DNA of 64,000 bases from a virus (IMGVR_UViG_3300028832_000001:164007-228006); one strand, 5' to 3'; numbered from the stretch's first letter, positions 3,853 to 25,129 are shown. Notes: generated by a model from the letters alone, not told the origin. A program made the numbers and translations.

Positions 3853-4599
3853 TTAAATGCCAAAATTTTCTAAGAAATAATCAGGAAGCTTTGGATTGAA
3901 ATGTTGAATACGTATCGTTTCCAGTTTAAATTTTCCTGCATTATACGCACGAATAATCTTATCGTAATTTGGACCTTGAATACCTTTTCTAATAAGTTCA
4001 TTAACTTCATGATATGTAAAGCCTAACTTTTCTTCGTCAGAAAGTGGTTGAAGCCCATCAATCGGTGTTTTATGCGTAAGTTCATATGGAAGTCCAAGGT
4101 CATCACCAATTTCGATAACTTCTTCCGTGGTTAGCATATCAATCGGTGCAAAGGAACCACAAGTATCTCCCCAAAGCGTAGCATAGGAAACTATATTTTC
4201 GCTGCGATTGCATGTGTTAGCCATTAACCAACCATTAGTTTGTGCTGTTACCATAATCTGATTAGTACGAAGCCTTGCACCAACATTTGTCTTAGCATCA
4301 TAAGACTTGTCTGCACCAGGAACAAGCGCCAAAGATTCCTTGACAAGTGTTTCAATATCTTGAACATCATAACTAATGCCAAGATGATCAACTAATTGAT
4401 AAGAACAAGAAATGTCTTTTTGAATACCACATGGAAGCAATATGCCATGTACATGCTCTTTACCTAATGCTGCTGCACAAATTGCTGCTACTACACTAGA
4501 ATCTTTGCCACCAGAAATACCAAGAACCGCGTCGGTTTTACCTACACGATTAAAAAAATCTGCTGTCCAATCTATCACGTTTTTAGTTAATGTCTTCAT
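3853..4599 (-). CDS. nadE: NH3-dependent NAD+ synthetase
   Basis: VLGISGGKDS PP-loop, NVGARLR, TCNRSE..Y.T.WGD, KTP.DGL; 248 aa, no glutaminase domain. Confidence 0.9.
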   Translation of the reverse strand: MKTLTKNVIDWTADFFNRVGKTDAVLGISGGKDSSVVAAICAAALGKEHVHGILLPCGIQKDISCSYQLVDHLGISYDVQDIETLVKESLALVPGADKSYDAKTNVGARLRTNQIMVTAQTNGWLMANTCNRSENIVSYATLWGDTCGSFAPIDMLTTEEVIEIGDDLGLPYELTHKTPIDGLQPLSDEEKLGFTYHEVNELIRKGIQGPNYDKIIRAYNAGKFKLETIRIQHFNPKLPDYFLENFGI

Positions 4600-4679
4600 A
4601 ATTTTGTCCTTGATTAATTTTAAACTTTTATGTTATCAAAGATAGCAAAGAAAACAAAGCTGAAATGTAAATTTATTTT

Positions 4680-4823
4680 TTACTTTCCCTCTCCCTTTTC
4701 GAACCAACGAAGTTCTCGAAGTTGCTTTCTAATGTCATTAAATGTATTTCTTTCCTTGATAATTACACCTCCAACCAGTGTAATCCCCAAAAGTGCCAAA
4801 ACGGCTTTAAAAAATTTATTCAT
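4680..4823 (-). CDS. small membrane-anchored protein (47 aa)
   Basis: Hand translation MNKFFKAVLALLGITLVGGVIIKERNTF...; AAGGA RBS after promoter. Confidence 0.55.
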   Translation of the reverse strand: MNKFFKAVLALLGITLVGGVIIKERNTFNDIRKQLRELRWFEKGEGK

Positions 4824-4852
4824 AATATATCCTTTTTAAAATGTCTGGCACA

Positions 4853-4881
4853 AATATAGTAAATTTTACTTAAATTGTAAA
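4853..4881 (-). promoter_or_regulatory. sigma70-type promoter TTTACA-N17-TATATT
   Basis: Motif and spacing read directly. Confidence 0.75.
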
Positions 4882-4883
4882 CC

Positions 4884-5285
4884 TTACTTCTTTTTTAATA
4901 ATTCAGTAAATTTATCGGCTAATTTGCCAGCATCTGATTTTTCTCTTTCCTGAAACATCGGATCAACTTTCTTTTTAGGAGGAGTTGATTTTGCTTTAGG
5001 ATAATGTTGTGGAAAATTACCTTTAATTTTTTGTCTTGGATATGATGAGTCACGTGCAGACATAAAGCTATTGAATCTTTTATCAATATCATCAAGATTT
5101 TTTTCAACCTGTTCGATACCAGCTTCTATAGATTTAATAGTTGCATCTACTGAATCTTCAACTCTTGGAATAGTCTTAATCCACTTACCAAATTTTTGAT
5201 CTTGTGGTTCAGGACCAAGAACACGCCAGCCCATGCCTTCCATCATACCTTTTACATCATCTAAATTCATGTATAGATACCTCAT
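4884..5285 (-). CDS. hypothetical protein
   Basis: 133-aa ORF, ATGA overlap. Confidence 0.7.
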   Translation of the reverse strand: MRYLYMNLDDVKGMMEGMGWRVLGPEPQDQKFGKWIKTIPRVEDSVDATIKSIEAGIEQVEKNLDDIDKRFNSFMSARDSSYPRQKIKGNFPQHYPKAKSTPPKKKVDPMFQEREKSDAGKLADKFTELLKKK

Positions 5286-6094
5286 TCTAGTATTTCTTTA
5301 AATACTTTGTAATTAGTATCATCCTTTCCACAATAGACAGCAAATTCAATATTCTTGAAGAAGTATTTTCCGAGTTCCAAAGCTTTTTTATAAGCCTTAG
5401 CTACGATTTCAGGTGGGTTTTTGAATGCTCCACAACCGAATGCGCCAAGAATAATTGTTTCATCACCATGAGATGCAGCTAAGTTAAAAATATGAACTGC
5501 TCTGCGGAAATGAATATTAAACAATTCTTCATCAGTAACGTTTGGTTTTTCACCACGTTCATGGTTGTAAGCGTTTGCAGGTGTTTCACGAAGATTAGGT
5601 GCTGCACAAGTAATTACATCTACAGAGAATGGACGATACAATAAGTTATAATTGTCCGATTTGATAATTTGAATATTGGGTGTGTAAATTGCATCATTGT
5701 TATGAAGTGCATTCCCATATTCTTTATGTGGTTTATAAAAGATTTCGTCAAACTTCGGGTCAGACAAAACATTATAAAGTGTAGAACAACGACAAAGACA
5801 TTCTTCTTGTGCATTAGAACCCTTTGTTACACCGCCACCAGGATTTGTAGCAGAAGCAAAATTGAGAACTGCTACCTTACCAGTATATTTTCTTGCCGCA
5901 TCAAAAGAACTACTCTTAGTAACCTTGACAGTTCCTGGAGTTTTGTTCTCACAGAAAAAGTCAATCGTCATATCATCGGCAAGAAACTCCGAATTTTCAA
6001 TCGAATACTTAATAGAATTCTGTAAGGTTTTATCCTTACTGATTAATTCTTGAGTATGATTAAAAATTTTAATATTTTCTTCTTTACTAGCCAT
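5282..6094 (-). CDS. TIGR02452/DUF2263 microbial PARG-type macrodomain (ADP-ribose glycohydrolase)
   Basis: VLNFASATNPGGG...AQEECLCRCSTLY, IILGAFGCGAFKNPP signature. Confidence 0.85.
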   Translation of the reverse strand: MASKEENIKIFNHTQELISKDKTLQNSIKYSIENSEFLADDMTIDFFCENKTPGTVKVTKSSSFDAARKYTGKVAVLNFASATNPGGGVTKGSNAQEECLCRCSTLYNVLSDPKFDEIFYKPHKEYGNALHNNDAIYTPNIQIIKSDNYNLLYRPFSVDVITCAAPNLRETPANAYNHERGEKPNVTDEELFNIHFRRAVHIFNLAASHGDETIILGAFGCGAFKNPPEIVAKAYKKALELGKYFFKNIEFAVYCGKDDTNYKVFKEILE

Positions 6095-6096
6095 GA

Positions 6097-6378
6097 TTAA
6101 GCCTTAAACATATCATCACACTTCAAGAGCAAACGATCAATCTTGGGCTGGATCATCTTTTGGTTATATGGATCATCGCCAACGATGTCATTCTTGGTCC
6201 AGTGGCAGAGTCTACCGATAATAAGGAACCAGAAGACATTTGCAAGTGGTGACATAAAAATATCAAGCACACTTGGATGAAATGGTACATGGTCCATTTT
6301 ATGGCCAACATAGAGTGCGATAATGCCAGCTGCATACATTGCAATGACAGTGAGAATGATAGTAGTGATTGTAGTCAT
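6097..6378 (-). CDS. hypothetical membrane protein
   Basis: Two hydrophobic segments. Confidence 0.65.
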   Translation of the reverse strand: MTTITTIILTVIAMYAAGIIALYVGHKMDHVPFHPSVLDIFMSPLANVFWFLIIGRLCHWTKNDIVGDDPYNQKMIQPKIDRLLLKCDDMFKA

Positions 6379-6411
6379 GTTTATTTTTCCTTTGGTTATA
6401 GTTTTTTATAA

Positions 6412-6440
6412 AATATAACAAAAAGCAGGGCTGTTGTCAA
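6412..6440 (-). promoter_or_regulatory. sigma70-type promoter TTGACA-N17-TATATT inside terminator hairpin
   Basis: AGCAGGGTTG-acaa-CAGCCCTGCT-T5. Confidence 0.85.
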
Positions 6441-6478
6441 CCCTGCTTAGTGATTTTATTTAGGAGAAATCCTTTTTA

Positions 6479-7129
6479 TTAGACACCCTTGTAAGCTTTG
6501 ACGACTTCTTCGAATTCAGTGTCGAGAGCGACAGTTTCGATAGTCTGAGTGCCCTTACCACCCTTACCGGTGATTTCGGCAATTTCCTGCTTAGCTTCGA
6601 TGTGGAACTGAGTGGTCTTGACTTCGCTTTCGATTTCAGCAATCATAGCGTTGCAATCGATACCGAAATCGCCAATCTTGTTGCGATCGCACATCTTGAG
6701 TGTATCGATCTGGACCTGGAGAGCAGTGAGCTTAGCTTCGATGAGAGCCTTGTTGGTGTCGATGTTCTTGAGAGTGTCGCGAACCTGGACACACTGCTTT
6801 TCTGTGTTCTGCCAAGCAGTTTCGATAGTGTCACGAGCAGTCTTCATGCCCTTGTAAACAATATACTTAATCTTAGCTTCATCGAGCTTGTCAGCAGCGA
6901 TGAGAGATTCGTAGACACGCTTGCTAGTAGCGGTCTTTTCGTCGAGTTCCTCGAACTTGGCCTTGAGTTCCTTAGCGTTGACCAGCATATCTTCAGCCGA
7001 CTTGATATACTGAGCGGCATTCTTATTATACTGATAACGGATTTCCTCAATCTTATCCTTGGTGGAGATGAGGCCTTCGAGACCACGCTGAGCCTTGTGA
7101 GCGAAGATTTTGAAGATATTGAAAGACAT
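6479..7129 (-). CDS. PspA/IM30-like coiled-coil protein
   Basis: 216 aa, all-helical heptad pattern, size and C-terminal D.EFEE motif typical; own promoter; high-expression codon bias. Confidence 0.5.
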   Translation of the reverse strand: MSFNIFKIFAHKAQRGLEGLISTKDKIEEIRYQYNKNAAQYIKSAEDMLVNAKELKAKFEELDEKTATSKRVYESLIAADKLDEAKIKYIVYKGMKTARDTIETAWQNTEKQCVQVRDTLKNIDTNKALIEAKLTALQVQIDTLKMCDRNKIGDFGIDCNAMIAEIESEVKTTQFHIEAKQEIAEITGKGGKGTQTIETVALDTEFEEVVKAYKGV

Positions 7130-7187
7130 AGTTTTGTTTCCTTATGTTAATTGTTGAATTGTTTTATTGTTTTTTGTTTATGTGCAT

Positions 7188-7216
7188 AATATAGTAATTA
7201 TTATCGCACTTGTAAA
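7188..7216 (-). promoter_or_regulatory. sigma70-type promoter TTTACA-N17-TATATT
   Basis: Motif and spacing read directly. Confidence 0.75.
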
Positions 7217-7224
7217 CCCCCTGA

Positions 7225-7668: not shown

Positions 7669-7680
7669 ATATTCTCCAAA

Positions 7681-8788: not shown

Positions 8789-9327
8789 GGTTCTGTCCCC
8801 ACTAGTTTATTATATTCGTCAATAATAGTTTTCTTGTATTTTTCTGGAGATTTCTTCCTATAACTGTTAAGCATATTACTAACAGATAGTTTATTATGGA
8901 ATGCTATAGCACATTCACACAAGAAAGCGAAGAATCTTGCAGAATTCGTAACAATAACTAATATAATTGCAATAGGTGCAAATAAAATACTTCCACCAAA
9001 CAAGATATTACAACCAAGATAGAAAATACTTTCAAAATATGATTTTTCATCGTGATTATAATAATAATCTCTATGTTTGTCTATTGCAAACATTAAACAG
9101 ATATCACCAACAATAAACAGAATAATAGGTAATACAATAGCCCACCAATGTTCATGCAAAAAATTGTGCATAACGATAGTGCTTTGCCATGCATTTCGTT
9201 GTAAATTACCAAAACCATTAACAAGGAGGTAAATTGCTGCAACGACTTGGAAAATTACTTCAATCGAAATAACTCCAACCCACCATTCTTGACCTTTAAA
9301 AAAGTAATCAGATAAAAACTTCTTCAT
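8782..9327 (-). CDS. multi-pass membrane protein
   Basis: 3-4 hydrophobic helices; C-terminal IIDEYNKLV. Confidence 0.7.
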   Translation of the reverse strand: MKKFLSDYFFKGQEWWVGVISIEVIFQVVAAIYLLVNGFGNLQRNAWQSTIVMHNFLHEHWWAIVLPIILFIVGDICLMFAIDKHRDYYYNHDEKSYFESIFYLGCNILFGGSILFAPIAIILVIVTNSARFFAFLCECAIAFHNKLSVSNMLNSYRKKSPEKYKKTIIDEYNKLVGTEPW

Positions 9328-9336
9328 ATATTCTCC

Positions 9337-9642
9337 TTATTTAAATACCATTGGAACGGCAGACATTGGAAGCGGTTTATTAGGAATTGCTTTACAACAT
9401 TGCTTTGATCGTGGCGTATATGATGAACGAGTGTTTTCTGCAGCTAAATGACCTTTGTATTCCAGAATACTTTGTTCATATAACTTAGCACGTTTTTCAA
9501 CCATGATATTATGATTTGCTTTATTAAATTTGACATCCATAGCAAAGTAAGTTATTAATAATGCAACGAAAAGAACTGCTCCGACAATCGATGTTACTGC
9601 ATAGCAATCATCATAATTTAATCTATGATTTTTTGTTCTCAT
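9337..9642 (-). CDS. single-pass membrane protein
   Basis: One hydrophobic segment. Confidence 0.6.
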   Translation of the reverse strand: MRTKNHRLNYDDCYAVTSIVGAVLFVALLITYFAMDVKFNKANHNIMVEKRAKLYEQSILEYKGHLAAENTRSSYTPRSKQCCKAIPNKPLPMSAVPMVFK

Positions 9643-9645
9643 GGT

Positions 9646-10158
9646 TTAGTTTCTCCTTAAATGGTCGTTAAGATTACTGATAACGTTAGGAAGTATTCTA
9701 CTAACTCTATCATTAATGTTAGTCATTGCTTCAATCTTTTTCTCTTTATGGTTTTTTGGGAACATGAAAATAAAAGTTAATGTATCTATTATCGGTAAAA
9801 TATAATACCAATAACTACTAGAATTTGACGATACAATAGCACTTATAATTCCGACCAAAAACAGATAAGCAGCAACGATTAAAAGTCTATTAATCCACTG
9901 TAAAATAGTTGGATTAGTATCTTGATATTCAATCATTTTTGGTGCATAGTATTTAGTATCAATCTGTTCAATATCATATGTACTCAAATGATATTTAGCA
10001 TTAAGATACTTGTGTGTTTCTGGAATTCCTCCACACCAACAATGTGTTTCTTTTACTGGTTCTTTTACTGTTTTTGTTATAGTTTGTGATGGTATTCCCA
10101 TGATTGCTAATACAATACAGAATACTATCACTAGTTCAGAGATGACTTTTATAAGCAT
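9646..10158 (-). CDS. membrane protein
   Basis: Three hydrophobic segments. Confidence 0.65.
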   Translation of the reverse strand: MLIKVISELVIVFCIVLAIMGIPSQTITKTVKEPVKETHCWCGGIPETHKYLNAKYHLSTYDIEQIDTKYYAPKMIEYQDTNPTILQWINRLLIVAAYLFLVGIISAIVSSNSSSYWYYILPIIDTLTFIFMFPKNHKEKKIEAMTNINDRVSRILPNVISNLNDHLRRN

Positions 10159-10175
10159 TGATATGCTCCTATGGT

Positions 10176-10697
10176 TTAGTTTTTAAGAAAGTTGTTATAA
10201 GTACTTATCATTTCTTTTTCTGTTTTTTCCCAAACAATCATTTTTTCTTTTGTTTTTCTTGGTGCGAATAACATAAAAAAATGTTCAAGACAGAAATTAA
10301 CTGCATAGAATAAATACCTAGTGAAATCATAAAGAAGAATAAACGGTGCTACCATAAGCAATGCACCACTGCAAGTAGCAAATACCCAAAAATATCCAGC
10401 AACTAAGAATCTTCGGTCGTCATTACTTGTATACTGTGAATCAGCAAATAATGTGAAAACGCCGAAAATAATAGAAATTATTACCATGATAAGTCCGATT
10501 AACCAAACTTTAGCACCTGGTGGAGCAACAAGTGAAAGATTACCCATTTCTTCTGGAGTTGTAGCAAAATAACCAACGCCAGTAATAACGCTAAAAATAA
10601 CAATACACAGGACAGATAAAACTGTTAAAGCATATGAAAATTCATTATAACTAGCGTCAATAATTGATTTACCAGTATCTTTGAGTAATTTAAACAT
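10176..10697 (-). CDS. multi-pass membrane protein
   Basis: Hydrophobic helices; C-terminal MISTYNNFL. Confidence 0.7.
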   Translation of the reverse strand: MFKLLKDTGKSIIDASYNEFSYALTVLSVLCIVIFSVITGVGYFATTPEEMGNLSLVAPPGAKVWLIGLIMVIISIIFGVFTLFADSQYTSNDDRRFLVAGYFWVFATCSGALLMVAPFILLYDFTRYLFYAVNFCLEHFFMLFAPRKTKEKMIVWEKTEKEMISTYNNFLKN

Positions 10698-11548: not shown

Positions 11549-11577
11549 AATATAGAAAAAAGAACCACTTTTGTAAA
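11549..11577 (-). promoter_or_regulatory. sigma70-type promoter TTTACA-N17-TATATT inside terminator hairpin
   Basis: AAGAACCATT...AGTGGTTCTT-T run. Confidence 0.8.
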
Positions 11578-11617
11578 TGGTTCTTTTTAATTTTTATCTG
11601 ATGAATATTTTTGCAGA

Positions 11618-12901
11618 CTACGGTGTTTTAATCACGACCATTCCACCCTTCCACTGGTCAAGCGGAATATACTCAAATACGCTCTTAACGTATTCAACGT
11701 ATGCCGGAGATTCGCACATATTCTTTTCAGGGCAATCGCTAAGCTTAACGACATCTCTACCATTAACCTTAACAACCTTCATGACCATGGAAAGCGGCTT
11801 AATACCAGCAGTCTCAGTTACAAGATTTGCCATGAAATAAGTACCGATACCGAAGCTGATCTTGATACGACCATTGAAATGCTGTGCAATCTTGATAGCC
11901 TTATCAACATCGAGAGAGTCAGACCAGCAACCAGTCTTAGTAGTCGGGTCAATACCGAGTGCCTTATAATGGGCAATCAACATTTCACCCCAGACAATCG
12001 GGTCACCAGAGTCATGACGACATCCGTCGAACAACTTTGCATAGAACTTATCAAAGTCACGAAGGAACGGGATGAAACCAAAGTTATCAGACAATGCAAT
12101 ACCAAGATCGCCACGATATTCCTGGGTCCATGCATCAAATACAGCCTTCTGAGACTGACGAATAGGAACATCATCAAGACCCTGGAACAATGCATACATT
12201 TCATGTGCAAACGTTCCAATTGCCTTTACACCATATTTAATGGCGAAATAAAGGTTAGAAGTTCCGACAAAGCACTTACAGTTCTTAGCCATATAACCAA
12301 CTGCATAGTCCTGCCAAGCGAAAGAATGTCTACGGCGAGCACCAAAGTCAGCAAAACCGAACTTCAAGCCAGAATCGATTGCAGCATTAAACTTATCAAC
12401 TGCTTCCTTAAGATTTTGCTTTGCCTTTTCAAAATCAAATTCAAACTGACGGAGATAAAGTTCCTGGATGATTTCCATCACATAGATTTCAAACCAAGTA
12501 ACCTTGAGCTGAGGACCTTCTGCTTCAATTTCAAGATCGTCACCACGACGAGTAATCTTGATATACTTTCTCTTTAAACGGAAGTCTTCTAGCCAGTCAA
12601 CATAGTCAGGCTTAATGTAATAAATCTTGGACAATGCATCAAGTTCAAACGGTTGCCATCTAAGAGTACAAAGATGATCAACTTCACGGTTAACTGCATC
12701 AACCAAATAACCCAAATGAACATCCTTAGAGCGAAGCTTCCACTTCCACTTAGCCCATTCATTTGGACGCTTATGAAGTAAACATTGTGTCATACTGACC
12801 TTATAAATGTCAGTATCACTCAAATAATTGATGATATACTTTTCTTCATCAATCGGTTTATAATTCTTAATTTCGTCAATTTCTTTTTGAGAAAGTTCCA
12901 T
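11618..12901 (-). CDS. pncB: nicotinate phosphoribosyltransferase
   Basis: DTDIYKVSMTQ, FEI..ME, DFGARRRHS, GTSN, IGTFAHEM, FDGCRHDSGDP, FGIGT, KLSD.PEK. Confidence 0.92.
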   Translation of the reverse strand: MELSQKEIDEIKNYKPIDEEKYIINYLSDTDIYKVSMTQCLLHKRPNEWAKWKWKLRSKDVHLGYLVDAVNREVDHLCTLRWQPFELDALSKIYYIKPDYVDWLEDFRLKRKYIKITRRGDDLEIEAEGPQLKVTWFEIYVMEIIQELYLRQFEFDFEKAKQNLKEAVDKFNAAIDSGLKFGFADFGARRRHSFAWQDYAVGYMAKNCKCFVGTSNLYFAIKYGVKAIGTFAHEMYALFQGLDDVPIRQSQKAVFDAWTQEYRGDLGIALSDNFGFIPFLRDFDKFYAKLFDGCRHDSGDPIVWGEMLIAHYKALGIDPTTKTGCWSDSLDVDKAIKIAQHFNGRIKISFGIGTYFMANLVTETAGIKPLSMVMKVVKVNGRDVVKLSDCPEKNMCESPAYVEYVKSVFEYIPLDQWKGGMVVIKTP

Positions 12902-12929
12902 TTTAATATCCTTTTTTAAATTTGACTAA

Positions 12930-12958
12930 AATATAGCAAAATAAAATGTATTTGTAAA
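12930..12958 (-). promoter_or_regulatory. sigma70-type promoter TTTACA-N17-TATATT
   Basis: Drives pncB; back-to-back with a late promoter. Confidence 0.8.
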
Positions 12959-12967
12959 TGCTTTTAA

Positions 12968-12975
12968 TATAAATA
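12968..12975 (+). promoter_or_regulatory. T4-like late promoter TATAAATA(ATATAA)
   Basis: Exact motif upstream of leader-family gene. Confidence 0.75.
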
Positions 12976-13043
12976 ATATAAATTACGGTTTCTTAGAGTT
13001 CCGAGAAACCAAAGAAAATACAGAATTTAATAGAGGATTAGGT

Positions 13044-13595
13044 ATGAATCTTAATGAAGCAAAGCAATTTCTTAAAAGACATGGCTTTATCGTAGAAAGA
13101 AAGGGTGATTTCGTTGATCCGTCAACAAGACCTGAATTTTATGACCCGGATTACTATGCAGAAGATGGTTATGATGCTAGTAGTGAAGAAAGTGATTGTT
13201 CAAATTATGCTACCGAGGTTGAAAAATATTTAAAAACAAATTATCCTGATAAAAAGGTCGAAGTTAATTATGATATTTCTGACGATGGAGAATATATTAA
13301 ATATGAATGCGCTGTTGCTTTTATATTTGATCATCTTCCAACATTTGATGAAGTAACTGACTGTGAAGATATTTCTTATGACATTGCAAATGATGTAGAT
13401 GATTGTGGATGTCCATGGGATGATGGCGAAACTTTAATATATGCTGTTGTCAATGGAAAGAAACAAGATATATCTGATACTTATAATAAAAATCCAGAAG
13501 GCATAGAAAACGCTGAATATTTTGAAGTTGTTGAAATGTCTTATGGTACAAAACGAATTCCTGAACCAGAAGATCCTCGTGAACCTGAATGGTAA
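13044..13595 (+). CDS. acidic protein with shared N-terminal leader (putative capsid-internal protein)
   Basis: MNLNEAKQFLKRHGFIVE; late promoter, GAGG RBS, own terminator. Confidence 0.75.
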   Translation: MNLNEAKQFLKRHGFIVERKGDFVDPSTRPEFYDPDYYAEDGYDASSEESDCSNYATEVEKYLKTNYPDKKVEVNYDISDDGEYIKYECAVAFIFDHLPTFDEVTDCEDISYDIANDVDDCGCPWDDGETLIYAVVNGKKQDISDTYNKNPEGIENAEYFEVVEMSYGTKRIPEPEDPREPEW

Positions 13596-13612
13596 TTTAT
13601 TAACATGAAAAT

Positions 13613-13643
13613 AAAAAAGGATTGGATAAAACCAATCCTTTTT
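13613..13643. terminator. bidirectional intrinsic terminator
   Basis: A run-AAGGATTGG-loop-CCAATCCTT-T run between convergent genes. Confidence 0.8.
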
Positions 13644-14012: not shown

Positions 14013-14231
14013 TTATTCCTTAATATTGATTTTGATTTGAGAACCTAATGTTCTGATCACAATATCTACGTTTTCTTTTGTAACAGGTTTATGTAATTTT
14101 CTCACTACATCTTCAGCCAGTGCATAAATCTGCTTTTCTGTCGCGCCATCGGCAACAGCAAGCAGATCTTGCCATACATCTGCAAGGTCATTAAGACCTT
14201 CTATATTATATCTGTCTGGAATATTAGGCAT
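14013..14231 (-). CDS. hypothetical protein
   Basis: 72-aa ORF overlapping pncA stop. Confidence 0.65.
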   Translation of the reverse strand: MPNIPDRYNIEGLNDLADVWQDLLAVADGATEKQIYALAEDVVRKLHKPVTKENVDIVIRTLGSQIKINIKE

Positions 14232-14811
14232 TGATTACATCAATCTGTTGACGCTGGAGACAGAGAATTGCAGCCTTCTGACCTTCTTCATCCAAATCAG
14301 CAATGCAGCTTGCATCGACCGTAATCTTCATATTCGGGAATGCAGCTCTGAGAATAACTGCGTTCGCAAGAACACAAATCGTGCTTACGAAACCCCAAAT
14401 TTCAATTTCGTCGAATTCAATACCGAGATTTCTGATATATTCAGGAAGATCGAGCTTACCGAATGTATACTTATCGACAGAATAGAAATTGTGCTTACCA
14501 TCTTGGTTCTTCTTCTGAAGTTCATCAAGAATAGTCTTTTCAATTTCCCAACCATCGGTCAGCTTAATGCAGTGCGGAACTGGAAGCTTCTGACCTTCCA
14601 ATGTTTCCTCATACGGCTTGCCTTCCATTGGAGGCCAACCAGTAGTAACCTGCATCTTGTTAAAGTGAGTATCATGTGTTGCAATGATAGCACCATCCCA
14701 GTGCTTAATCTTGTTAACAATATTAGGAACCTTCGCCTGTGCGAATGGGTTTGCGAGAGCACCAGTAATAAAGTCTACCTGTGCATCAACTAATAAGCCG
14801 AGTTTTGCCAT
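14224..14811 (-). CDS. pncA: nicotinamidase (isochorismatase/cysteine hydrolase family)
   Basis: LVDAQVDFITGAL, ATHDTH, PHC, K in VDKYTFG, GFVSTICV (D-K-C triad). Confidence 0.85.
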   Translation of the reverse strand: MAKLGLLVDAQVDFITGALANPFAQAKVPNIVNKIKHWDGAIIATHDTHFNKMQVTTGWPPMEGKPYEETLEGQKLPVPHCIKLTDGWEIEKTILDELQKKNQDGKHNFYSVDKYTFGKLDLPEYIRNLGIEFDEIEIWGFVSTICVLANAVILRAAFPNMKITVDASCIADLDEEGQKAAILCLQRQQIDVINA

Positions 14812-14871: not shown

Positions 14872-15516
14872 TTATTTATTTTCAGCTTCCTTATAAAGCT
14901 TTAAAAATTCTCTTGAAATAAAATTCGTATGAATTCGTTTTTCTTCAAAAGGTTTGTCAGGTCCATGAACTGCGACATGCATGTTATATGCCAATCTTCG
15001 CATACATTGTAAACCTTCTTTGTCATGTTCGAGTTCTTCCGGGAAATCTCCATGCACTTCATTCCAATACTGACTTCCTACGACAGTCATGGAATGCATA
15101 AGAAAATAAGAATTAAGATGAGCAAATGCTAGTTCATTACCTGCACGTCTCGAAACTGTTATTCCTGCTGCATACTTATTACGCATAACATTTGCGGCAG
15201 AATAAAATACACGAGACATAAAATTGGCAAGTTGACCAGTAATTCCAGCATAATAAACTGGCGATGCAAAGATAAAACCATCGGCATTCTGTGCTTTTTC
15301 AATAAAGCGATTAACTAAATCGTTATCAAAAACGCAATGACCAAGCTTTTTATCTTTACAGACATTGCAACAAATGCAACCATTCATCTGTGGACCTAAC
15401 CACATATTATCGATTACATTATCGCCGAGAATTTTAAATTCTTCTTCGACTTCATGCAATGCCCTGGCAGTACAACCATCTCGGTGTGGACTACCATTTA
15501 CCATCAAAATATTCAT
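14872..15516 (-). CDS. iron-sulfur flavoprotein / NADPH-dependent FMN reductase (flavodoxin fold)
   Basis: NGSPHRDGCT, C-x2-C-x2-C-x7-C, FASPVYYAG. Confidence 0.85.
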   Translation of the reverse strand: MNILMVNGSPHRDGCTARALHEVEEEFKILGDNVIDNMWLGPQMNGCICCNVCKDKKLGHCVFDNDLVNRFIEKAQNADGFIFASPVYYAGITGQLANFMSRVFYSAANVMRNKYAAGITVSRRAGNELAFAHLNSYFLMHSMTVVGSQYWNEVHGDFPEELEHDKEGLQCMRRLAYNMHVAVHGPDKPFEEKRIHTNFISREFLKLYKEAENK

Positions 15517-16469
15517 TACTTTTCTGCCTCAAGTGCAATCAACGAGTTACCACAAGTAATACGGTCTGCGTCTTCTTCATGCGACGGAATGAAAACGATA
15601 ACCTGCCAACCTGCATCAACGAGCGGCTTTTCGAACTTTTCGTAAACGTCAAAATCAAATTCAGTAGTGAAGTTATTTACTGCTGCAGCTTCTGTTGCAT
15701 GGATAGGAGTAATCTTGACAATGAAACGATCCTTGTCGAAATACTTGTCCATGAGAGCAGGGTCAAGATTGCACTTGCCAGTTGCTGCAAAGTTCAGAGT
15801 ATACTTTCTACCAGCAGGAGGCGGAAGACGCTTTGCCAAATCCGAGATTTCCTGCAAGCTTAACGACTGGTTATTAAACATGTCGTTTCTATCAGCTTCA
15901 TCAAGGGTATTGATAGAGAACTGAAGACCAATACCACCATTCCACTTTGCATCGTAACCAAGAGCACACCAGTCTTGGAGGAATGCTTCAAGCTTCTTAT
16001 TGTTATTCGGAAGCATGGTAGAAACGACAGGATGATATTCCTTGAACCAGTTATTGGAAATATTACCAATATCACGAGCGACCTTAATTACGTTTGGATT
16101 CCAAGTAGGTTCGCCCATTCTTGCAAAGTGGACATTGAGTCTTTCACCTTGAGTGATCTTAGAGAATGCGATACCATTAACAATTTCGGACATCAATTCA
16201 AAGTAGGGGACATTTCCCTTGAAGCCGAACTTAGGACAGTCACAGAACTTACAGGATTCAAGACAACCCTTCTGGGTAGAAACCGTAACGACAAGCTTAT
16301 CCGCTACATCGACGGGTTTGTGAACGACCTTTTCGATTCTTTTGGTATAGCCTAAGAAATCTGCCTTAATGTTATTTTCTTTACCATAATCGCCTACGTA
16401 AAGATACTCCAAGTTGAGGTCTGTGTCCGAGACAATCATGCCAGTGTGTGTTTGAGTTATAGTTCTCAT
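15516..16469 (-). CDS. radical SAM enzyme, RlmN/Cfr-like
   Basis: VSTQKGCLESCKFC, RMGEP, LQFSIN, C-terminal ITCG. Confidence 0.75.
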   Translation of the reverse strand: MRTITQTHTGMIVSDTDLNLEYLYVGDYGKENNIKADFLGYTKRIEKVVHKPVDVADKLVVTVSTQKGCLESCKFCDCPKFGFKGNVPYFELMSEIVNGIAFSKITQGERLNVHFARMGEPTWNPNVIKVARDIGNISNNWFKEYHPVVSTMLPNNNKKLEAFLQDWCALGYDAKWNGGIGLQFSINTLDEADRNDMFNNQSLSLQEISDLAKRLPPPAGRKYTLNFAATGKCNLDPALMDKYFDKDRFIVKITPIHATEAAAVNNFTTEFDFDVYEKFEKPLVDAGWQVIVFIPSHEEDADRITCGNSLIALEAEK

Positions 16470-17001: not shown

Positions 17002-17481
17002 TTATGCCTTTAGTTTTTCTTCTAGTTTATGTAATACTTCCTTATATGTCGTGAAAAGGATAGCGTTACTCCCAGCCCCAACAAAATCAGCACAATTTTC
17101 TGGTTTGTCATCGATTAATAAACGATTTGGTTTCGCATGTTCAACCTTATTAAAAGACTTATCGCAAATAATAATATTTGCCTGATCTATTTCAGGACAG
17201 TTACATTCAAGCCAATATCGTTTTCCTCGTTTACCAGACTTAGAGAAAATAGCGGATAGAACACCAAGTTTAAAATTATACTTCTTCTGTAATTCAAGAA
17301 TGCCTAGATAAAGATCATGACCTTCAAGAAGCCAAGGCATATCAATCCAGAATTTAGCACCAATCTTACATACTTTATCCCAATTCGCTTTTCCCGTAGG
17401 TTTTCGAGCGTTGTAAAAATCAATCTGGTAATCCCAGTTGGTTAATACACCGTCCATATCTAAATATACTTCATCTATCAT
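17002..17481 (-). CDS. HAD-family 5'(3')-nucleotidase-like protein
   Basis: YLDMDGVL motif I, LLIDD motif IV. Confidence 0.7.
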   Translation of the reverse strand: MIDEVYLDMDGVLTNWDYQIDFYNARKPTGKANWDKVCKIGAKFWIDMPWLLEGHDLYLGILELQKKYNFKLGVLSAIFSKSGKRGKRYWLECNCPEIDQANIIICDKSFNKVEHAKPNRLLIDDKPENCADFVGAGSNAILFTTYKEVLHKLEEKLKA

Positions 17482-18473
17482 AGAGTAGAAATGTTTAAAA
17501 GTTCAGAAATTGTTTCGTGTCCAGTTATTTTATGGAAATTTTCTTTAGGCATATCGACCGAAATACTTACTTCCATATTAGGCATGTCTATATAAAGGTC
17601 AGGAACGATAATATTGCCTACTGTATCTCGTTTCTTAATTCCGTCAATATTATAAATTGAATCTGATGGAACATCAAACAAATGTAATACTCTTGCAGGA
17701 TTAATCTGTTTAAAACCAAGAATATCAAAGTTTATAATCTTGCACATGCTATGCAATGCCGGAATTTTCTTCTGTAACCAGGAAATATTCTTTTCGATTT
17801 CTTTCTTATACTTTTCAAAAAGAATCTTTCCTCGACCAGTATTCTTAAATCCTTGAATCAGAACCCTTCTTCCCTGTAAAGCAGGAAGATCATGCCTATT
17901 AAGAATACCAGCGATTACATGAATAACGACCCTATCACCAAGTTTGTCTATGAATTTAAAATCTTCCTTACAATGTGCGTCATGCAATGTAATTCCAAGG
18001 CCATAAATGAGTTCTTCATCGATTAATTTCTTAATAAGGTCTTTATTTTCTTTGATATGAATCTGATTAATATTAAGGTTAACGATGATTTGTCTTGCCT
18101 TGAGAATTCCCAGAATAGTTATAAGTTCTGGATGTGCCAAAGGATTTCCACCAGTAATATTAACTTCAAGTCCAGGATAGAAAGAATTAATCATAGGCAA
18201 CAGCTTTGACAAATCAGCATGCTTTGTTGCACTATTACTTCCTTCAGAACAGAACTGACAACCTGCATTACAAAAGTCTGTAATTTTTATAGTTATATTT
18301 TCTGGCGCTTCATAAATGAAATTTTCAGAATCTGTCTCAACCCAACGGTTGACACGAGTTCCTTTAGATCCTGGTTCGTTTACGTAGTAACCAGTCTCTT
18401 TGACCTTCGTACCGTCAGTATAAATAGTAGTACGATGATTGCCATTTATATAACTAGTTATAATATTACTCAT
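17478..18473 (-). CDS. radical SAM protein
   Basis: CNAGCQFC CxxxCxxC, ITGGNPL. Confidence 0.8.
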   Translation of the reverse strand: MSNIITSYINGNHRTTIYTDGTKVKETGYYVNEPGSKGTRVNRWVETDSENFIYEAPENITIKITDFCNAGCQFCSEGSNSATKHADLSKLLPMINSFYPGLEVNITGGNPLAHPELITILGILKARQIIVNLNINQIHIKENKDLIKKLIDEELIYGLGITLHDAHCKEDFKFIDKLGDRVVIHVIAGILNRHDLPALQGRRVLIQGFKNTGRGKILFEKYKKEIEKNISWLQKKIPALHSMCKIINFDILGFKQINPARVLHLFDVPSDSIYNIDGIKKRDTVGNIIVPDLYIDMPNMEVSISVDMPKENFHKITGHETISELLNISTL

Positions 18474-19208: not shown

Positions 19209-19228
19209 TATATAATATACAGATTTTG

Positions 19229-19257: not shown

Positions 19258-19259
19258 AT

Positions 19260-19267
19260 TATAAATA
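19260..19267 (+). promoter_or_regulatory. T4-like late promoter TATAAATA(ATATAA)
   Basis: Exact motif directly after terminator. Confidence 0.75.
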
Positions 19268-19295
19268 ATATAAAGAAAATTAATTGAGAGGAATT

Positions 19296-21053: not shown

Positions 21054-21070
21054 TAATCTCAATTAATAAA

Positions 21071-21100
21071 AGAAAGGCGGCAAGTAATTGCCGTCTTTTT
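21071..21100. terminator. bidirectional intrinsic terminator
   Basis: AAGGCGGCAA-gtaa-TTGCCGTCTT with A/T runs. Confidence 0.8.
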
Positions 21101-21103
21101 ATT

Positions 21104-22432
21104 TTAGAATGTCTTAATAAATGCGGTATAACCTAAGTAAGCGTTATAAATGTCATTTACATGGGCAAGTTCTAATGGAGAGTGCATATTCAGAATTGGA
21201 ACACCTGCATCAAGAACATTGATATTCAATTCACAAACCATACTTGCGATTGTTCCACCGCCACCAACATCGACCTTGCCAAGAGAATCAAACTGATACT
21301 TAACTCCTGCATCCTTCATAACCTTTCGGATATAAGCAATAAATTCAGGATTTGCGTCAGCACCACCAGACTTACCACGACCTCCATTATACTTAGAGAA
21401 CATAATACCACCATTTAACTTAGCAGAAGATTTCTTATCATAAGCGTCTGCATAAAGTGGGTCATAAGCTGCAGTAACGTCAGAAGAAAGCATACGAGAA
21501 CGTGCTAAGTATGTAGCAAATTCAACTTCATCCTTCGGTCTCAAGACACAACGTAATACGTCTTCAAACCATCTCGATTTTGCTCCTGTAGCACAGCAAG
21601 AACCAATTTCTTCCTTATCTACTAATACAACACCAGATGTGACTTCTGGAAGCTCCTGGAGCGACAGAACAGCCATTAATGAGGTAAATGCGCAAACTCT
21701 ATCATCTTGACCATAACCAGCAATCAAGGACTTATCAAAGCCAGAATATCTTGCTTTACCTGCAGGAACAATTTCAAGTTCTGCAGAAACTAAATCTTCT
21801 TCTTCAACTCCATATTTTTCCTTAAGGAACTGTAAAACCCATTCCTTAACCTTTTTCTTATCCTTATCTTCAGTTTCGATTTCAGTCGTTGCTACGAGAA
21901 TATCGAGCTTTTCACCATTAATGAAATCACTTGCTTTCTTTTCTGCAAGTTTCTTATCAAGGTGAGGAAGAAGGTCACAAATACAGAAAATCGGATCATT
22001 CGGATCTTCACCAATAGAAACCTTTACAGTGTTACCGTCAATAGTGCAAATAACACCATGAATAGCAAGCGGAGTAGTTGTCCATTGATACTTCTTGATA
22101 CCACCATAATATTGTGTATCAAAGTAAGCAATTCCATCTGATTCATAAAGTGGCTTTTGCTTGACGTCGATTCTAGGAGCATCAATATGAGCACCGAGAA
22201 TGTTTACTGCTATGTTTGCCTTACCAACAATAAATGCTGCAAAATTCTTATTTTTATTCTTGAAATAAACCTTTTCACCTGGCAACAAAATACCAGAAGT
22301 ATGTTTATATTGCCTAAAACCAGCAAGAATAGCAAGACGTTCAGCTTCATCGACACAAAGACGTTCAGTCTTCGCGGTTGAAATAAAATTAATATAATCT
22401 GTGATTAAGTTTGTTTGATTTATTATACTCAT
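21104..22432 (-). CDS. M18 family aminopeptidase
   Basis: GAHIDAPR, YYGGIKKYQW, GYGQDDRVC, DKEEIGS, SSDVTAA, NMHSP. Confidence 0.9.
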   Translation of the reverse strand: MSIINQTNLITDYINFISTAKTERLCVDEAERLAILAGFRQYKHTSGILLPGEKVYFKNKNKNFAAFIVGKANIAVNILGAHIDAPRIDVKQKPLYESDGIAYFDTQYYGGIKKYQWTTTPLAIHGVICTIDGNTVKVSIGEDPNDPIFCICDLLPHLDKKLAEKKASDFINGEKLDILVATTEIETEDKDKKKVKEWVLQFLKEKYGVEEEDLVSAELEIVPAGKARYSGFDKSLIAGYGQDDRVCAFTSLMAVLSLQELPEVTSGVVLVDKEEIGSCCATGAKSRWFEDVLRCVLRPKDEVEFATYLARSRMLSSDVTAAYDPLYADAYDKKSSAKLNGGIMFSKYNGGRGKSGGADANPEFIAYIRKVMKDAGVKYQFDSLGKVDVGGGGTIASMVCELNINVLDAGVPILNMHSPLELAHVNDIYNAYLGYTAFIKTF

Positions 22433-22440
22433 ATAAATCA

Positions 22441-22468
22441 AATATAAAAAAATAACGGGTTTTGTAAA
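22441..22468 (-). promoter_or_regulatory. sigma70-type promoter TTTACA-N16-TATATT inside hairpin terminator
   Basis: AATAACGGGTTT-tgt-AAACCCGTTATT perfect 12-bp stem. Confidence 0.75.
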
Positions 22469-22495
22469 CCCGTTATTGTTAATTGCTGAAATTTA

Positions 22496-23737
22496 TTAAG
22501 CGTTTTCTTTGAAGTTCTTAGCGAATTCTTCAAATACCTGTTCGAGACATTCCTTAGTCAAACCGAGCTTGAAGACTGGCTTATAAGTATCGTAGAATTC
22601 CTGAAGGTTATGTGCTACGAACGGCTTATCTGTATCAGTCTTATAGCGAGTGTTCAAACGAGTTAAGGCATGCTGACAAATAGCACGGACAATTTCAACA
22701 CTTGCAGCACCGATTGCGTCACCAACGACACCACCGTTACGGATAAGTCTTGGATTATCAGTGAAGTACTTCTTAACAATTTGCTTAGCCTTCAACTTAA
22801 ATGGATCATTATCACGTCTTGGAATTTCGATTGTATTCGGAATTTCACCGTCAATGATTTCATTAATCTGAGCAGCATAAGTCTGAGCATCAGAGTTCAA
22901 GAATGAACGGCATTCAGCAGCAGTCGGGAAGTTAGCAGCACCTAAGCTATCCTTAATAGTCTTCTTAACGCTCTGTTCCATATATTCTGCATCGTTGTTT
23001 GCTAACAATCTCATTGCGTCTTCTGGGAAGTCGTTAATGAACAATGCCAACTTGTAAGCAACGGTTTCGTCCATCTTAGCACGATCTTCTTCTGGAACAC
23101 GGTTAAGTTCGTCTCTCTTATAAGCACGAACCCAGTCATTCCAAGCATCACTAAGTTCTGTAGCAGAACCAGAGTAATCCGGCATAATCCAACGAGCCAA
23201 GTCACGGCTAAGCTGTCTATAAGAGTTAGCACCGAATCTGTCCTTAGCTTCTTCTTCGTTGTTCTTAAACCATTCGACGAAATCAGCCATATCAAGTTCG
23301 TTATAAGCGTCAGCTAACTGAACATTATTTCTGGAAATCTGGTTGTGGAACTTAATGCCACGGTCATAGTAGTTTCTATCAATATCGTCTTTGTTATGTT
23401 CGATAGCTCTACCAATTCTAGTATAAAGCTTATAATATGCACTTTCTGTAAACTTACGCTTAAAATCATACCAGCTTGTTGATGTAAGATCAATATTGAG
23501 CTTACTTCTAATTAATGCAACATAAGCATCCCAATCAAAGCGGTTAACTTCAATGAATCTCTTTAACTTAGCCATTGCGGTGGCAGTTGAATCACGATCT
23601 GTGATAACTTCATTGATTGCCTTTGCAGTAAGGAACATCTGCTGCTTTTCTGGTGTAAGTTTATCAAAAACACGACGTTGTGCGTTCTTAGCCATTTCAG
23701 TAATATATCTCTTTTTTCTGATAGTGAGCAAGCTCAT
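22496..23737 (-). CDS. late hypothetical protein (413 aa)
   Basis: Late promoter, AAGGAG RBS; ...RYITE|MA possible cleavage site. Confidence 0.75.
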   Translation of the reverse strand: MSLLTIRKKRYITEMAKNAQRRVFDKLTPEKQQMFLTAKAINEVITDRDSTATAMAKLKRFIEVNRFDWDAYVALIRSKLNIDLTSTSWYDFKRKFTESAYYKLYTRIGRAIEHNKDDIDRNYYDRGIKFHNQISRNNVQLADAYNELDMADFVEWFKNNEEEAKDRFGANSYRQLSRDLARWIMPDYSGSATELSDAWNDWVRAYKRDELNRVPEEDRAKMDETVAYKLALFINDFPEDAMRLLANNDAEYMEQSVKKTIKDSLGAANFPTAAECRSFLNSDAQTYAAQINEIIDGEIPNTIEIPRRDNDPFKLKAKQIVKKYFTDNPRLIRNGGVVGDAIGAASVEIVRAICQHALTRLNTRYKTDTDKPFVAHNLQEFYDTYKPVFKLGLTKECLEQVFEEFAKNFKENA

Positions 23738-23764
23738 ATAATCTCCTTAAAATTTACTTTATAT

Positions 23765-23772
23765 TATTTATA
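23765..23772 (-). promoter_or_regulatory. T4-like late promoter TATAAATA(ATATAA)
   Basis: Exact motif directly after terminator. Confidence 0.75.
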
Positions 23773-23774
23773 AT

Positions 23775-23801
23775 AAAAAATGAGAGAATTAATCTCTCAT
23801 T
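23775..23801 (-). terminator. intrinsic terminator
   Basis: AATGAGAGA-loop-TCTCTCATT-T run. Confidence 0.75.
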
Positions 23802-23821
23802 CTTTACAAAAAATACAGAGT

Positions 23822-24013
23822 TTAGAGATTATCGGCTATAATTTCTTCTGATTTTTCTTCTAGTTGTCTTTCTGCCTCAGCTGCATGAATTTTTTCATCT
23901 GTAACTACTTCAGTATCAAAACGGTCAAGATGTAGCATTGCACGTTTTAATTCTTCAGCAGGAAACATAGAAATCATTTCACCTAATTGAGGCTTTGGTT
24001 TTTCATTTTCCAT
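23822..24013 (-). CDS. hypothetical protein
   Basis: 63-aa ORF. Confidence 0.6.
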   Translation of the reverse strand: MENEKPKPQLGEMISMFPAEELKRAMLHLDRFDTEVVTDEKIHAAEAERQLEEKSEEIIADNL

Positions 24014-24025
24014 ATTAATTATTTA

Positions 24026-25129
24026 TTACTGTTTTAAAGCATCTTCGATAATCATGCCATGGTGGAAACCAAGTTTTGGTAAATTATCAAGCTTAAACCA
24101 GCCTACATCTGCAGCATCATCACCAGCAACTGCCTTCTTCTTGTCCTTACCAGGAACATGAACAACAAATGCTGTATCAATAATGCGGAGTCTCGGGTCA
24201 AACATATGACTATATGTTTTAATCTGAGTAAACTTTTCAACTGGAATGTCAAGTCCAGCTTCTTCCCTAAATTCTCTCTGAGCTGCATGTTCAAGACTTG
24301 CATCTGGCTTTTCCATTTCACCAGTTTCCTTATTCTTAAATGCAGAATGATTAAAGAATCCACCAGGAGTGCACCAATGACCCATGAAAGGAGGTTTCTT
24401 TCTACGAATCAACATAACTTCATCGCCAGAAATTGCACAAACATCAACAGTGTTTGCGAATGCTCCCCAGCCCTGTTTCTTGTAGTTTTCAACCCACTTC
24501 TTTTCCAAATCCGCATAATTTGTCGGATTCTGGTTATAAAGACATGTAGAAATAATATTATTCTTTGCATCAATTTCACCTTCATGACGAATAAAATTGA
24601 ATACAACCTTACTAATATACTTCTGAACATCCTTATAGTGACATTCTGGATTAACTCTAAAGATTTCTCTAACAGCACTGCTAGAAATACCTTCAGTCTT
24701 GAGATTGTCAACAATAGTGCAATTTGCTTGCTTATAAGCAACAGCTGCGTCTCTTGCGAAGACGAGGAACTTATAAGTATTCAGTAAACGGTTACTATAT
24801 AACCACTTACCAGCAACGAGACTCTTCCATTCATCATCGCCAATAACGATAGTAATTTCATTCGGGTCAACTTGACGATAATTAACCCAAAGATATTCAT
24901 ACATTCTGTTAGTTTGAATATCAATATCGTAATCAACATTCTTAGATGCTAATGCGACTTTGACCATCTGCTTACGTGCACCTGCGGGTGTGCGATTGGT
25001 CTTTTCGTCATTATCTGTAACAAGAATGTGAAGTTTATCGCCAGCTCTCATTCTTTTCTTGACAGCTTTGATAATTGCTTCATGTGCATGTGTGAATGGG
25101 TCAAACCAGCTTCCGAATATATAATGCAT
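24026..25129 (-). CDS. bifunctional NadD-like nicotinate/nicotinamide mononucleotide adenylyltransferase + Nudix (ADP-ribose pyrophosphatase-like)
   Basis: FGSWFDPFTHAH (HxGH-like), IVIGDD..W....FLVFAR and ISSSAVR (NadD motifs); C-terminal Nudix box PGG...AAQREFREEAG, AGDDA. Confidence 0.8.
   Translation of the reverse strand: MHYIFGSWFDPFTHAHEAIIKAVKKRMRAGDKLHILVTDNDEKTNRTPAGARKQMVKVALASKNVDYDIDIQTNRMYEYLWVNYRQVDPNEITIVIGDDEWKSLVAGKWLYSNRLLNTYKFLVFARDAAVAYKQANCTIVDNLKTEGISSSAVREIFRVNPECHYKDVQKYISKVVFNFIRHEGEIDAKNNIISTCLYNQNPTNYADLEKKWVENYKKQGWGAFANTVDVCAISGDEVMLIRRKKPPFMGHWCTPGGFFNHSAFKNKETGEMEKPDASLEHAAQREFREEAGLDIPVEKFTQIKTYSHMFDPRLRIIDTAFVVHVPGKDKKKAVAGDDAADVGWFKLDNLPKLGFHHGMIIEDALKQ

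Follow-up and report, generated by a model that had tools for sequence, protein, structure and literature searches.

Depletion of nicotinamide adenine dinucleotide (NAD+) is among the commonest outcomes of bacterial anti-phage immunity, and experiments have established three pathways by which phages rebuild it. The subject here is a further candidate, a set of genes for a nicotinamidase (PncA), a nicotinate phosphoribosyltransferase (PncB), a NadD-type adenylyltransferase fused to a Nudix hydrolase, and an NAD+ synthetase (NadE), carried on a 64,000-nucleotide stretch of phage DNA (IMGVR_UViG_3300028832_000001:164007-228006), which is referred to as the window. NARP1 and NARP2 were described in 2024 in a study that leaves PncA, NadE and nicotinic acid unmentioned (Osterman et al., bioRxiv 10.1101/2024.02.11.579819). 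NARP1 consists of Adps and Namat. NARP2, found in Vibrio phage KVP40, consists of Nampt/NadV and a bifunctional enzyme in which a NadM-type nicotinamide mononucleotide adenylyltransferase (NMNAT) is joined to a Nudix domain (10.1101/2024.02.11.579819). Cleavage of the RES type defeats NARP1, whereas NARP2 works against it. NARP3, consisting of PnuC and a NadR-like enzyme, has since been named (Sci Adv 2026, PMC13464706).

Genome sequences of giant phages have also been reported to contain ordinary NAD+ salvage genes. Li et al. (Microbiome 2024, PMC11662467) found a complete salvage or Preiss-Handler pathway in 174 of 668 gut jumbo phages. That paper names these "NAD-jumbo phages", describes a pncB-nadD-nadE cluster, for example in Kuafu_71, and mentions phage pncA. 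Its account is one of sequence annotation and is not framed as reconstitution from the nicotinamide released by immune NADases. The original prediction for the window spoke of a "third" reconstitution route, a label that is outdated since NARP3 has been named and the 2024 paper already described Preiss-Handler clusters in NAD-jumbo phages, so that the gene set is not new as such. A literature search found no paper naming a NARP4 in this context or testing a phage PncA route. What is added here is the typing of the adenylyltransferase as NadD, the finding of its Nudix partner as fused, split or absent, the replacement of pncB in place, and the presence of PncA-NadE inside NARP1 operons.

A probable deamidating NAD+ salvage route in a bovine gut phage

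The window corresponds to bases 164,007-228,006 of one IMG/VR virus record, which is 415,750 bp long, bears direct terminal repeats and has a G+C content of ~33%. This record also carries a Gp23-type major capsid gene, and DNA of the phage is found in bovine gut metagenomes from several independent studies. Together, the single terminal-repeat record, the capsid gene and the metagenome matches identify it as the complete genome of a jumbo T4-like phage of the bovine gut. Neither megablast of the region nor tblastn of the NadD-like domain gave a match among GenBank phages.

We put the probability that this phage encodes a complete deamidating NAD+ salvage route at roughly three in four, on the basis of sequence comparison and structural models. 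In the proposed pathway, PncA would hydrolyse nicotinamide to nicotinate and ammonia. PncB would then join nicotinate to host-made phosphoribosyl pyrophosphate (PRPP), giving nicotinic acid mononucleotide (NaMN), which the NadD-type domain would adenylylate with ATP to nicotinic acid adenine dinucleotide (NaAD). Finally, the single-domain NadE would amidate NaAD to NAD+ with free ammonia. The fused Nudix domain would probably split ADP-ribose (ADPR) into AMP and ribose-5-phosphate, which host enzymes could return to PRPP. The substrate preferences in this scheme are likewise predicted.

All four open reading frames (ORFs) are present on the minus strand within 21 kb, as first proposed, and profiles, catalytic residues and predicted folds bear out each assignment. 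With them, the coherent deamidating route from nicotinamide to NAD+ that had been suggested gains support.

Identity of the four enzymes

The first step is assigned to PncA (195 amino acids; 14224..14811, minus strand). Its Pfam match is to the broad Isochorismatase family (9.6e-13), with no match to an NCBIfam model. A metal-binding Asp-x-His and the His of a P-H-C motif set nicotinamidases apart from other isochorismatase-like enzymes. In PncA the corresponding ligands, D47, H49 and H80-C81, are invariant among 21 homologs; D47 and H49 lie opposite D51 and H53 of yeast Pnc1 (2h0r), and H80-C81 opposite the HC motif of 2h0r and 1ilw. The catalytic triad is equally well kept, with D9 and K114 invariant and C146, which lies opposite the stretch around the catalytic Cys in 3s2s and 1ilw, present in 20 of the 21 homologs. 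The family profile matches the solved nicotinamidases of Pyrococcus, yeast, Acinetobacter and M. tuberculosis (1ilw, 2h0r, 2wt9 and 3pl1). An AlphaFold2 model (mean predicted local distance difference test score, pLDDT, 90.8) retrieves only nicotinamidases at Foldseek ranks 1-8, with template modelling (TM) scores of 0.66-0.81 and 3s2s, 5zn8, 1ilw and 3o93 among the best. PncA thus has the residues and the predicted fold of a nicotinamidase.

If this protein were some other isochorismatase-family enzyme, the four genes could be unrelated passengers that form no pathway. The breadth of the Pfam family, the missing NCBIfam match and the distance of up to 21 kb between the genes would all suit such an explanation. 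However, the nicotinamidase-specific metal ligands and the triad are conserved, the best profile and structural matches are nicotinamidases, and linkage of the genes is kept in more than 20 phage contigs, tight operons among them. We regard unrelated passengers as very improbable.

The second step falls to PncB (427 amino acids; 11618..12901, minus strand), predicted to convert nicotinate and PRPP to NaMN. It contains the NAPRTase and NAPRTase_N domains and passes two curated models, TIGR01514 (381 bits; cut-off 269.55) and NF003704 (451 bits; cut-off 379). PncB aligns end to end with PncB2 of P. aeruginosa (1yir, 1.1e-87), with GTFAHE opposite GTMAHE. The His of this G-T-x-A-H-E motif is presumably the autophosphorylated His known from Salmonella PncB.

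The proposed last step, NaAD to NAD+, is assigned to NadE (3853..4599, minus strand), which matches Pfam NAD_synthase (1.7e-40) and scores 136 bits against a cut-off of 63.65 for TIGR00552. At 248 amino acids with one Pfam domain it lacks the glutaminase half; it is a short, ammonia-type enzyme of archaeal or epsilonproteobacterial-like kind. The P-loop motif SGGxDS (S29-G-G-x-D33-S34) does not vary among 19 homologs. Of the solved structures, the ammonia-dependent NadE of P. horikoshii (2e18, 3.9e-29) matches best, with the Francisella NMN synthetase (3fiu) a weaker match at 3.8e-15.

The third step is placed in the ADENYLYLTRANSFERASE-Nudix fusion (24026-25129, minus strand, 367 amino acids). 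Its NadD-type nucleotide adenylyltransferase domain spans residues 1-200 (24530..25129), with a CTP_transf_like match at residues 4-155, and carries the nucleotidyltransferase motifs T13-H-A-H16 and ISSSAVR (148-154), in keeping with the family patterns (H/T)xxH and ISSTxxR. T13, H16, S149, S150 and R154 are invariant in 22 homologs. A phmmer search of the Protein Data Bank with the single N-terminal domain gave only a weak match to phosphopantetheine adenylyltransferase (PPAT; E 0.01), so a family profile was required to reach NadD. The profile of the 22 homologs matches NadD over its full length, including the enzymes of S. aureus (2h29, 3.7e-11), Plasmodium (5llt, 2.1e-10) and B. anthracis (3dv2), whereas it matches PPAT over the first 60 residues only and does not match NadM. 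The predicted structure (pLDDT 89.3) gives Foldseek matches to NadD with TM scores of 0.70-0.77 (1kaq, 2h2a and 3e27 at 0.75). In hhalign comparisons with the domain, a standalone phage NadD is matched with 96% probability and a NadM-type phage enzyme with 4%. On these sequence and model comparisons the domain is a divergent adenylyltransferase of the NadD type, not the NadM type, in line with the original call of a NadD-like enzyme rather than some other cytidylyltransferase.

This typing bears on a variant of the pathway in which the last two steps are swapped. Sorci and colleagues reportedly described in 2009 that Francisella pairs an NMN synthetase-type NadE with an NMNAT-Nudix enzyme. By analogy, the phage NadE homolog would convert NaMN to nicotinamide mononucleotide (NMN), which the adenylyltransferase would then use, with the same starting and end products. 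The Nudix domain on the phage adenylyltransferase and the match of the phage NadE to 3fiu are both consistent with this. However, the adenylyltransferase domain is NadD-type, NadE is nearer to canonical 2e18 than to 3fiu, and the standalone NadD proteins of related operons score 114.9 and 105.6 bits for TIGR00482, at or near its equivalog cut-off of 112.45. A swapped order is therefore considered unlikely.

The Nudix hydrolase domain (residues 201-367; 24026..24529) is of the ADP-ribose pyrophosphatase or NrtR kind, with a Pfam NUDIX match of 2.4e-13 at residues 226-352. Catalytic R285, E286, E289 and E290 are invariant, and its structural relatives include the NadM-Nudix enzyme 2qjo and the Nudix domain of ADPR-bound NrtR (3gz8). 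Judged by its family, it probably converts ADPR to AMP and ribose-5-phosphate. Matches covering both domains of NadM-Nudix have a root-mean-square deviation of 16-17 Å, so the two domains are packed differently from those of NadM-Nudix.

The fused family is of modest size. Among 1.84 billion representative proteins, 16 clusters were found at E<=1e-30, and full-length two-domain NadD-Nudix clusters number a few dozen. A search of 185,579 species genomes located near homologs of the N-terminal domain only on three short contigs of metagenome-assembled genomes, which resemble mis-binned phage DNA, and the nearest real bacterial NadD found is ~25% identical.

Comparison with described routes

Genome-wide searches help to separate the phage from the described systems. 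It carries one NAPRTase-family gene, the PncB-type gene itself, and hence no Nampt. One isochorismatase-family gene is present, and PncC was not found in the genome. No PRPP synthetase-like gene and no Pribosyltran_N match were found, and tblastn of the whole genome with a phage Adps-like protein and Namat gave no match. A second CTP_transf_like gene, the only other one in the genome, was considered as a possible NMNAT and rejected, as it is CoaD (112.9 bits, above cut-off) and adjoins CoaE. With Nampt, PRPP synthetase-like genes, Namat/Adps and PncC all missing from these searches, the deamidating route is, as judged from gene content, the only complete path from nicotinamide in the genome.

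NARP2 is the closest of the described systems, as it too makes NAD+ from nicotinamide, PRPP and ATP independently of ADPR and includes an adenylyltransferase-Nudix fusion. The two differ in that NARP2 takes two steps via NMN, whereas the route proposed here would take four via nicotinate, NaMN and NaAD, with a NadD-type adenylyltransferase and a need for NadE. Neither Nampt/NadV nor a NadM-type NMNAT is found in the window's phage. By analogy with NARP2 and given its substrates, the deamidating route would be expected to work against RES-type cleavage as well. NARP1 shares the aim of restoring NAD+ after cleavage, but the window's genome has no Adps/Prs-like gene or Namat, and ADPR would not be reused directly. 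The originally proposed distinction from NARP1 and NARP2 thus stands, with no Adps/Prs-like, Namat, Nampt or NadM-type enzyme detected in the genome.

With regard to NARP3, a PnuC-family transporter for nicotinamide riboside (NR) or NMN is encoded far outside the window (G000:C1:405146-405697, 1.1e-33). The pathway proposed here starts from nicotinamide rather than NR, and no NadR-like bifunctional enzyme was found in the genome, where only 179-residue AAA_28 and 142-residue P-loop proteins were seen. An NR route would therefore need another kinase and an NMN-accepting adenylyltransferase. Neither the AAA_28 protein nor the small P-loop protein encoded next to pnuC gave a match that would support an NR kinase, and both were rejected as such. 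The P-loop protein and a nucleoside 2-deoxyribosyltransferase-like ORF precede pnuC, and the AAA_28 P-loop protein belongs to a series of ORFs on one strand that includes an MFS transporter (G000:C1:262368-265610, L098).

The bacterial PncA-PncB-NadD-NadE pathway, the Preiss-Handler route with a nicotinamidase, comprises the same four families with the same predicted chemistry and catalytic motifs. Here it is virus-borne and includes a very divergent NadD lineage, a NadD-Nudix fusion and a short type of NadE. The NAD-jumbo phages (PMC11662467) are likewise animal-gut phages with genomes above 200 kb (415,750 bp here) that carry pncB, nadD and nadE. In comparison, the genes here are spread over 21 kb, entry through PncA is backed by residues and fold, and NadD is fused to Nudix.

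Linkage of the genes across phages

Comparative linkage provides the strongest part of the case for these genes working together. NadD-type homologs occur in 10 IMG/VR records, fused to Nudix in nine and split in one. A survey of co-occurrence had been suggested, and nine of these 10 records also encode PncB, NadE and PncA (an isochorismatase-family gene); the exception is a fragment that is 13% complete. Four other records carry a NadM-type NMNAT-Nudix enzyme (354 bits to NF003786) together with a Nampt-like enzyme of 468-492 amino acids, and NadE and PncA were not found in these four. In the 14 records examined, NadD-type with NadE and PncA, and NadM-type with a Nampt-like enzyme, are thus alternatives. 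Furthermore, PncB lies within 6 kb of PncA in 17 of 18 PncA loci, and NadE is present in all 10 PncA-bearing records searched. The most constant adjacency is that of PncA and NadE.

Several relatives have compact arrangements. In a 216-kb genome that is 99% complete (L086), nadD-nudix, pncB, pncA and nadE follow one another on one strand with gaps of 2-35 nucleotides, and L087 has a tight same-strand operon in the order pncB, nadD-nudix, pncA, nadE. L125 and the complete 183-kb L123 each carry pncA, pncB, a standalone nadD of 200-208 codons and nadE in a tight same-strand operon with overlapping ends. In the complete 254-kb L089, separate adjacent genes encode a 198-residue NadD, which is the one scoring 114.9 bits, and a 212-residue Nudix protein. 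Across relatives the Nudix domain is therefore fused in 12 IMG/VR loci, split in L089 and absent from L123 and L125.

In the window pncB lies directly downstream of pncA, as it does in the nearest relatives. In a comparison with L108-L113, the closest relatives (PncA 93-98% identical) have at this position a PncB that is only 36% identical. Window-type PncB (94-96% identical) is found instead in phages whose PncA is 58% identical. Phage PncB proteins thus form at least two lineages, and by sequence comparison pncB has been replaced in place by a different lineage. Close to this gene, contigs of relatives (RNA or DNA) skip 727 bp (12907-13635), and these relatives therefore lack the plus-strand ORF at 13044-13595.

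PncA-NadE pairs inside NARP1-type operons

The PncA-NadE pair was also found inside Adps-Namat (NARP1) operons in three phage contigs. These are L122 (6001-9934, from the 172,719-bp IMG/VR record G016), Phass-1 (GenBank OQ749652, 96,860-101,298) and the human-gut contig MT835544. The operon has five genes: pncA, an Adps/Prs-like gene, Namat, a 135-codon ORF and nadE. The Nampt-like protein of L122 matches the solved Namat 9W5X at 1.9e-120, against ~1e-45 for canonical Nampt. The pair is thereby connected with a system for which NAD+ reconstitution is proven. The operon may be a deamidated form of NARP1, in which nicotinate and ADPR-pyrophosphate (ADPR-PP) would give NaAD and then NAD+. Alternatively, its PncA and NadE may complement PncB and NadD of the host. 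Either way, the biochemical question is raised of the base specificity of Namat and its acceptance of nicotinate.

Reuse by NadE of the ammonia released by PncA is possible, being stoichiometrically feasible and in keeping with the conserved pncA-nadE adjacency, and these two points are its whole support. A complex prediction for NadE and PncA gave a score of 0.00, which weighs neither way.

Counter-defence or general metabolism

The likely benefit of the deamidating route would be to keep NAD+ available in the infected cell, also under cleavage by host Sir2, TIR, SEFIR or RES activities. Like NARP2, the route would need only nicotinamide, PRPP and ATP. We infer a counter-defence role at roughly even odds. 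A fuller proposal is that PncA-PncB-NadD(/Nudix)-NadE forms a dedicated fourth phage pathway of NAD+ reconstitution that defeats NAD+-cleaving immunity. Under this proposal, PncA-NadE would be a portable sub-module that also occurs in NARP1 operons, where Namat might make NaAD from nicotinate and ADPR-pyrophosphate and NadE would finish with the ammonia from PncA. This fuller proposal is put forward tentatively, as something short of an even bet.

The pathway may instead belong to general auxiliary metabolism, supplying more NAD+ to a very large phage that has NAD+ consumers of its own, such as a split NAD-dependent DNA ligase and ADP-ribose-handling enzymes, with no specific role against immunity. 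This explanation overlaps with the pathway proposed above, and the two part only over its selective benefit. It is favoured by a genome that encodes an NAD-dependent DNA ligase in two ORFs, PnuC, CoaD with CoaE and several other metabolic genes, and by the dispersal of the NAD genes, which do not lie in an anti-defence island. The published account of NAD-jumbo phages reads the genes in the same way (PMC11662467). Conversely, Nudix domains of the ADP-ribose type recur fused to NadD or beside it, PncA-NadE is embedded in NARP1 operons, and a route that begins with PncA suggests recycling of what NADases release and not bulk synthesis. The NAD-dependent ligase also releases NMN, which the route could not use without PncC. 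General metabolism is accordingly given a substantial minority of our confidence.

The split ligase lies outside the window (G000:C1:410508-412651), with the adenylation and OB domains in a 374-residue ORF and the zinc finger and BRCT domains in one of 276 residues. CoaD, the PPAT that exceeds its curated cut-off, stands beside a CoaE-like dephospho-CoA kinase with a Cys-rich C-terminal extension (G000:C1:255082-256569, L002:448-1935). CoaD and CoaE carry out the last two steps of coenzyme A synthesis.

Several further points count against the deamidating route or its dedication to NAD+ reconstitution. The NadD-type domain scores 49.3 bits for TIGR00482, below the cut-off, and is for this reason termed NadD-like and not a curated equivalog. 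A preference for NaMN over NMN is unreadable from sequence, and its support, from strict co-occurrence with NadE, is only indirect. As the phage encodes no PRPP synthetase, PRPP must come from the host, on which the route would depend. The ATP cost of the route is above that of the Nampt route. The four genes of the window's phage are dispersed over 21 kb instead of lying in one operon. Finally, PnuC, the split ligase and CoaD with CoaE fit general cofactor self-sufficiency equally well.

Expression signals

Each of the four genes was originally placed in a separate transcription unit. Upstream of nadE lies a promoter-like consensus match, TTTACA-N17-TATATT (4853-4881, minus strand), which is separated from the gene by a 47-codon ORF (4680-4823, minus strand). 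A sigma-70-like motif with the extended -10 element TTTTGCTATATT is found 29 nucleotides upstream of pncB (12930..12958, minus strand), and a terminator-like hairpin follows the gene (11557-11588, minus strand). The fusion gene has CTGACA-N17-TATATT with the identical extended -10 TTTTGCTATATT 21 nucleotides upstream (25150..25178, minus strand), and pncA has a weaker sigma-70-like motif. The late TATAAATA motif was not found upstream of any of the four genes on its own strand. These motifs suggest transcription of the genes from sigma-70-like, non-late promoters, which would also bear on the timing of their expression. Genome-wide, 72 of 117 sigma-70-like motifs fall within 120 nucleotides upstream of an ORF, a count made without a shuffle control. 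In two regions scanned, generic promoter-like sites are at most ~1.5 standard deviations above shuffled sequence. The claim of separate units, which draws on a motif before each gene and the lack of late motifs there, is comparatively weak.

Contigs in two rumen metatranscriptome studies match pncB, pncA, the fusion gene and a neighbouring PARG gene at 90-97% identity, although these RNA-library contigs come from related strains and may include DNA, which limits their weight in favour of the route. One gene-length RNA contig (11582-12874) ends near the limits of pncB and the flanking promoter and hairpin sites. Parts of the window without such cover carry no meaning.

A high-expression codon bias had also been claimed for pncA and pncB. 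Their G+C content at third codon positions is indeed raised, at the 81st-83rd percentile (0.39-0.40 against 0.45 in the capsid gene), but when scored against 48 long late genes their codon adaptation is average (38th-51st percentile). The bias is therefore not accepted as established.

Neighbouring genes

Between nadE and pncB lies a gene for a microbial-type PARG, a macrodomain-fold ADP-ribose glycohydrolase (5282..6094, minus strand; Pfam PARG_cat_microb 9.6e-33). It was rejected as a member of the module, as it occurs only in the ~400-kb clade, at varying positions, and is missing from compact operons and from five complete smaller phages that carry the NAD-salvage genes. PARG is a possible accessory in ADP-ribose handling that, judging from its family, could remove ADP-ribose marks or process ADPR derivatives.

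Directly upstream of pncA is an NADPH-dependent FMN reductase-like gene (14872..15516, minus strand; Pfam FMN_red 1.2e-24), which adjoins pncA only in the closest relatives (L108-L111). Two radical-SAM-like ORFs lie further upstream on the same strand (15516-16469 and 17478-18473). A calcineurin-like phosphoesterase fused to a P-loop kinase (Metallophos+AAA_33), with an architecture like that of the RNA-repair protein Pnkp, is encoded 38 nucleotides upstream of the NadD-Nudix gene (25168-26247, minus strand); a search of more distant relatives did not find it next to their NadD-Nudix gene. Neither this protein nor the FMN reductase nor an M18 aminopeptidase is conserved with the NAD genes outside close relatives, and all three were rejected as module members.

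Immediately downstream of nadE is a GIY-YIG/NUMOD homing endonuclease gene (2871-3704, minus strand). L123 likewise has a NUMOD endonuclease gene after nadE (9164-10363), and mobile endonucleases of this kind may help to move NAD genes.

Significance

If the counter-defence interpretation is true, phages would possess a fourth pathway of NAD+ reconstitution, built from ordinary deamidating salvage enzymes and needing only nicotinamide, PRPP and ATP. With these substrates it should be indifferent to modification of the ADP-ribose half of the cleaved cofactor. In many uncultivated gut phages the genes sit together in a compact operon, so that the proposal can be tested directly by co-expression.

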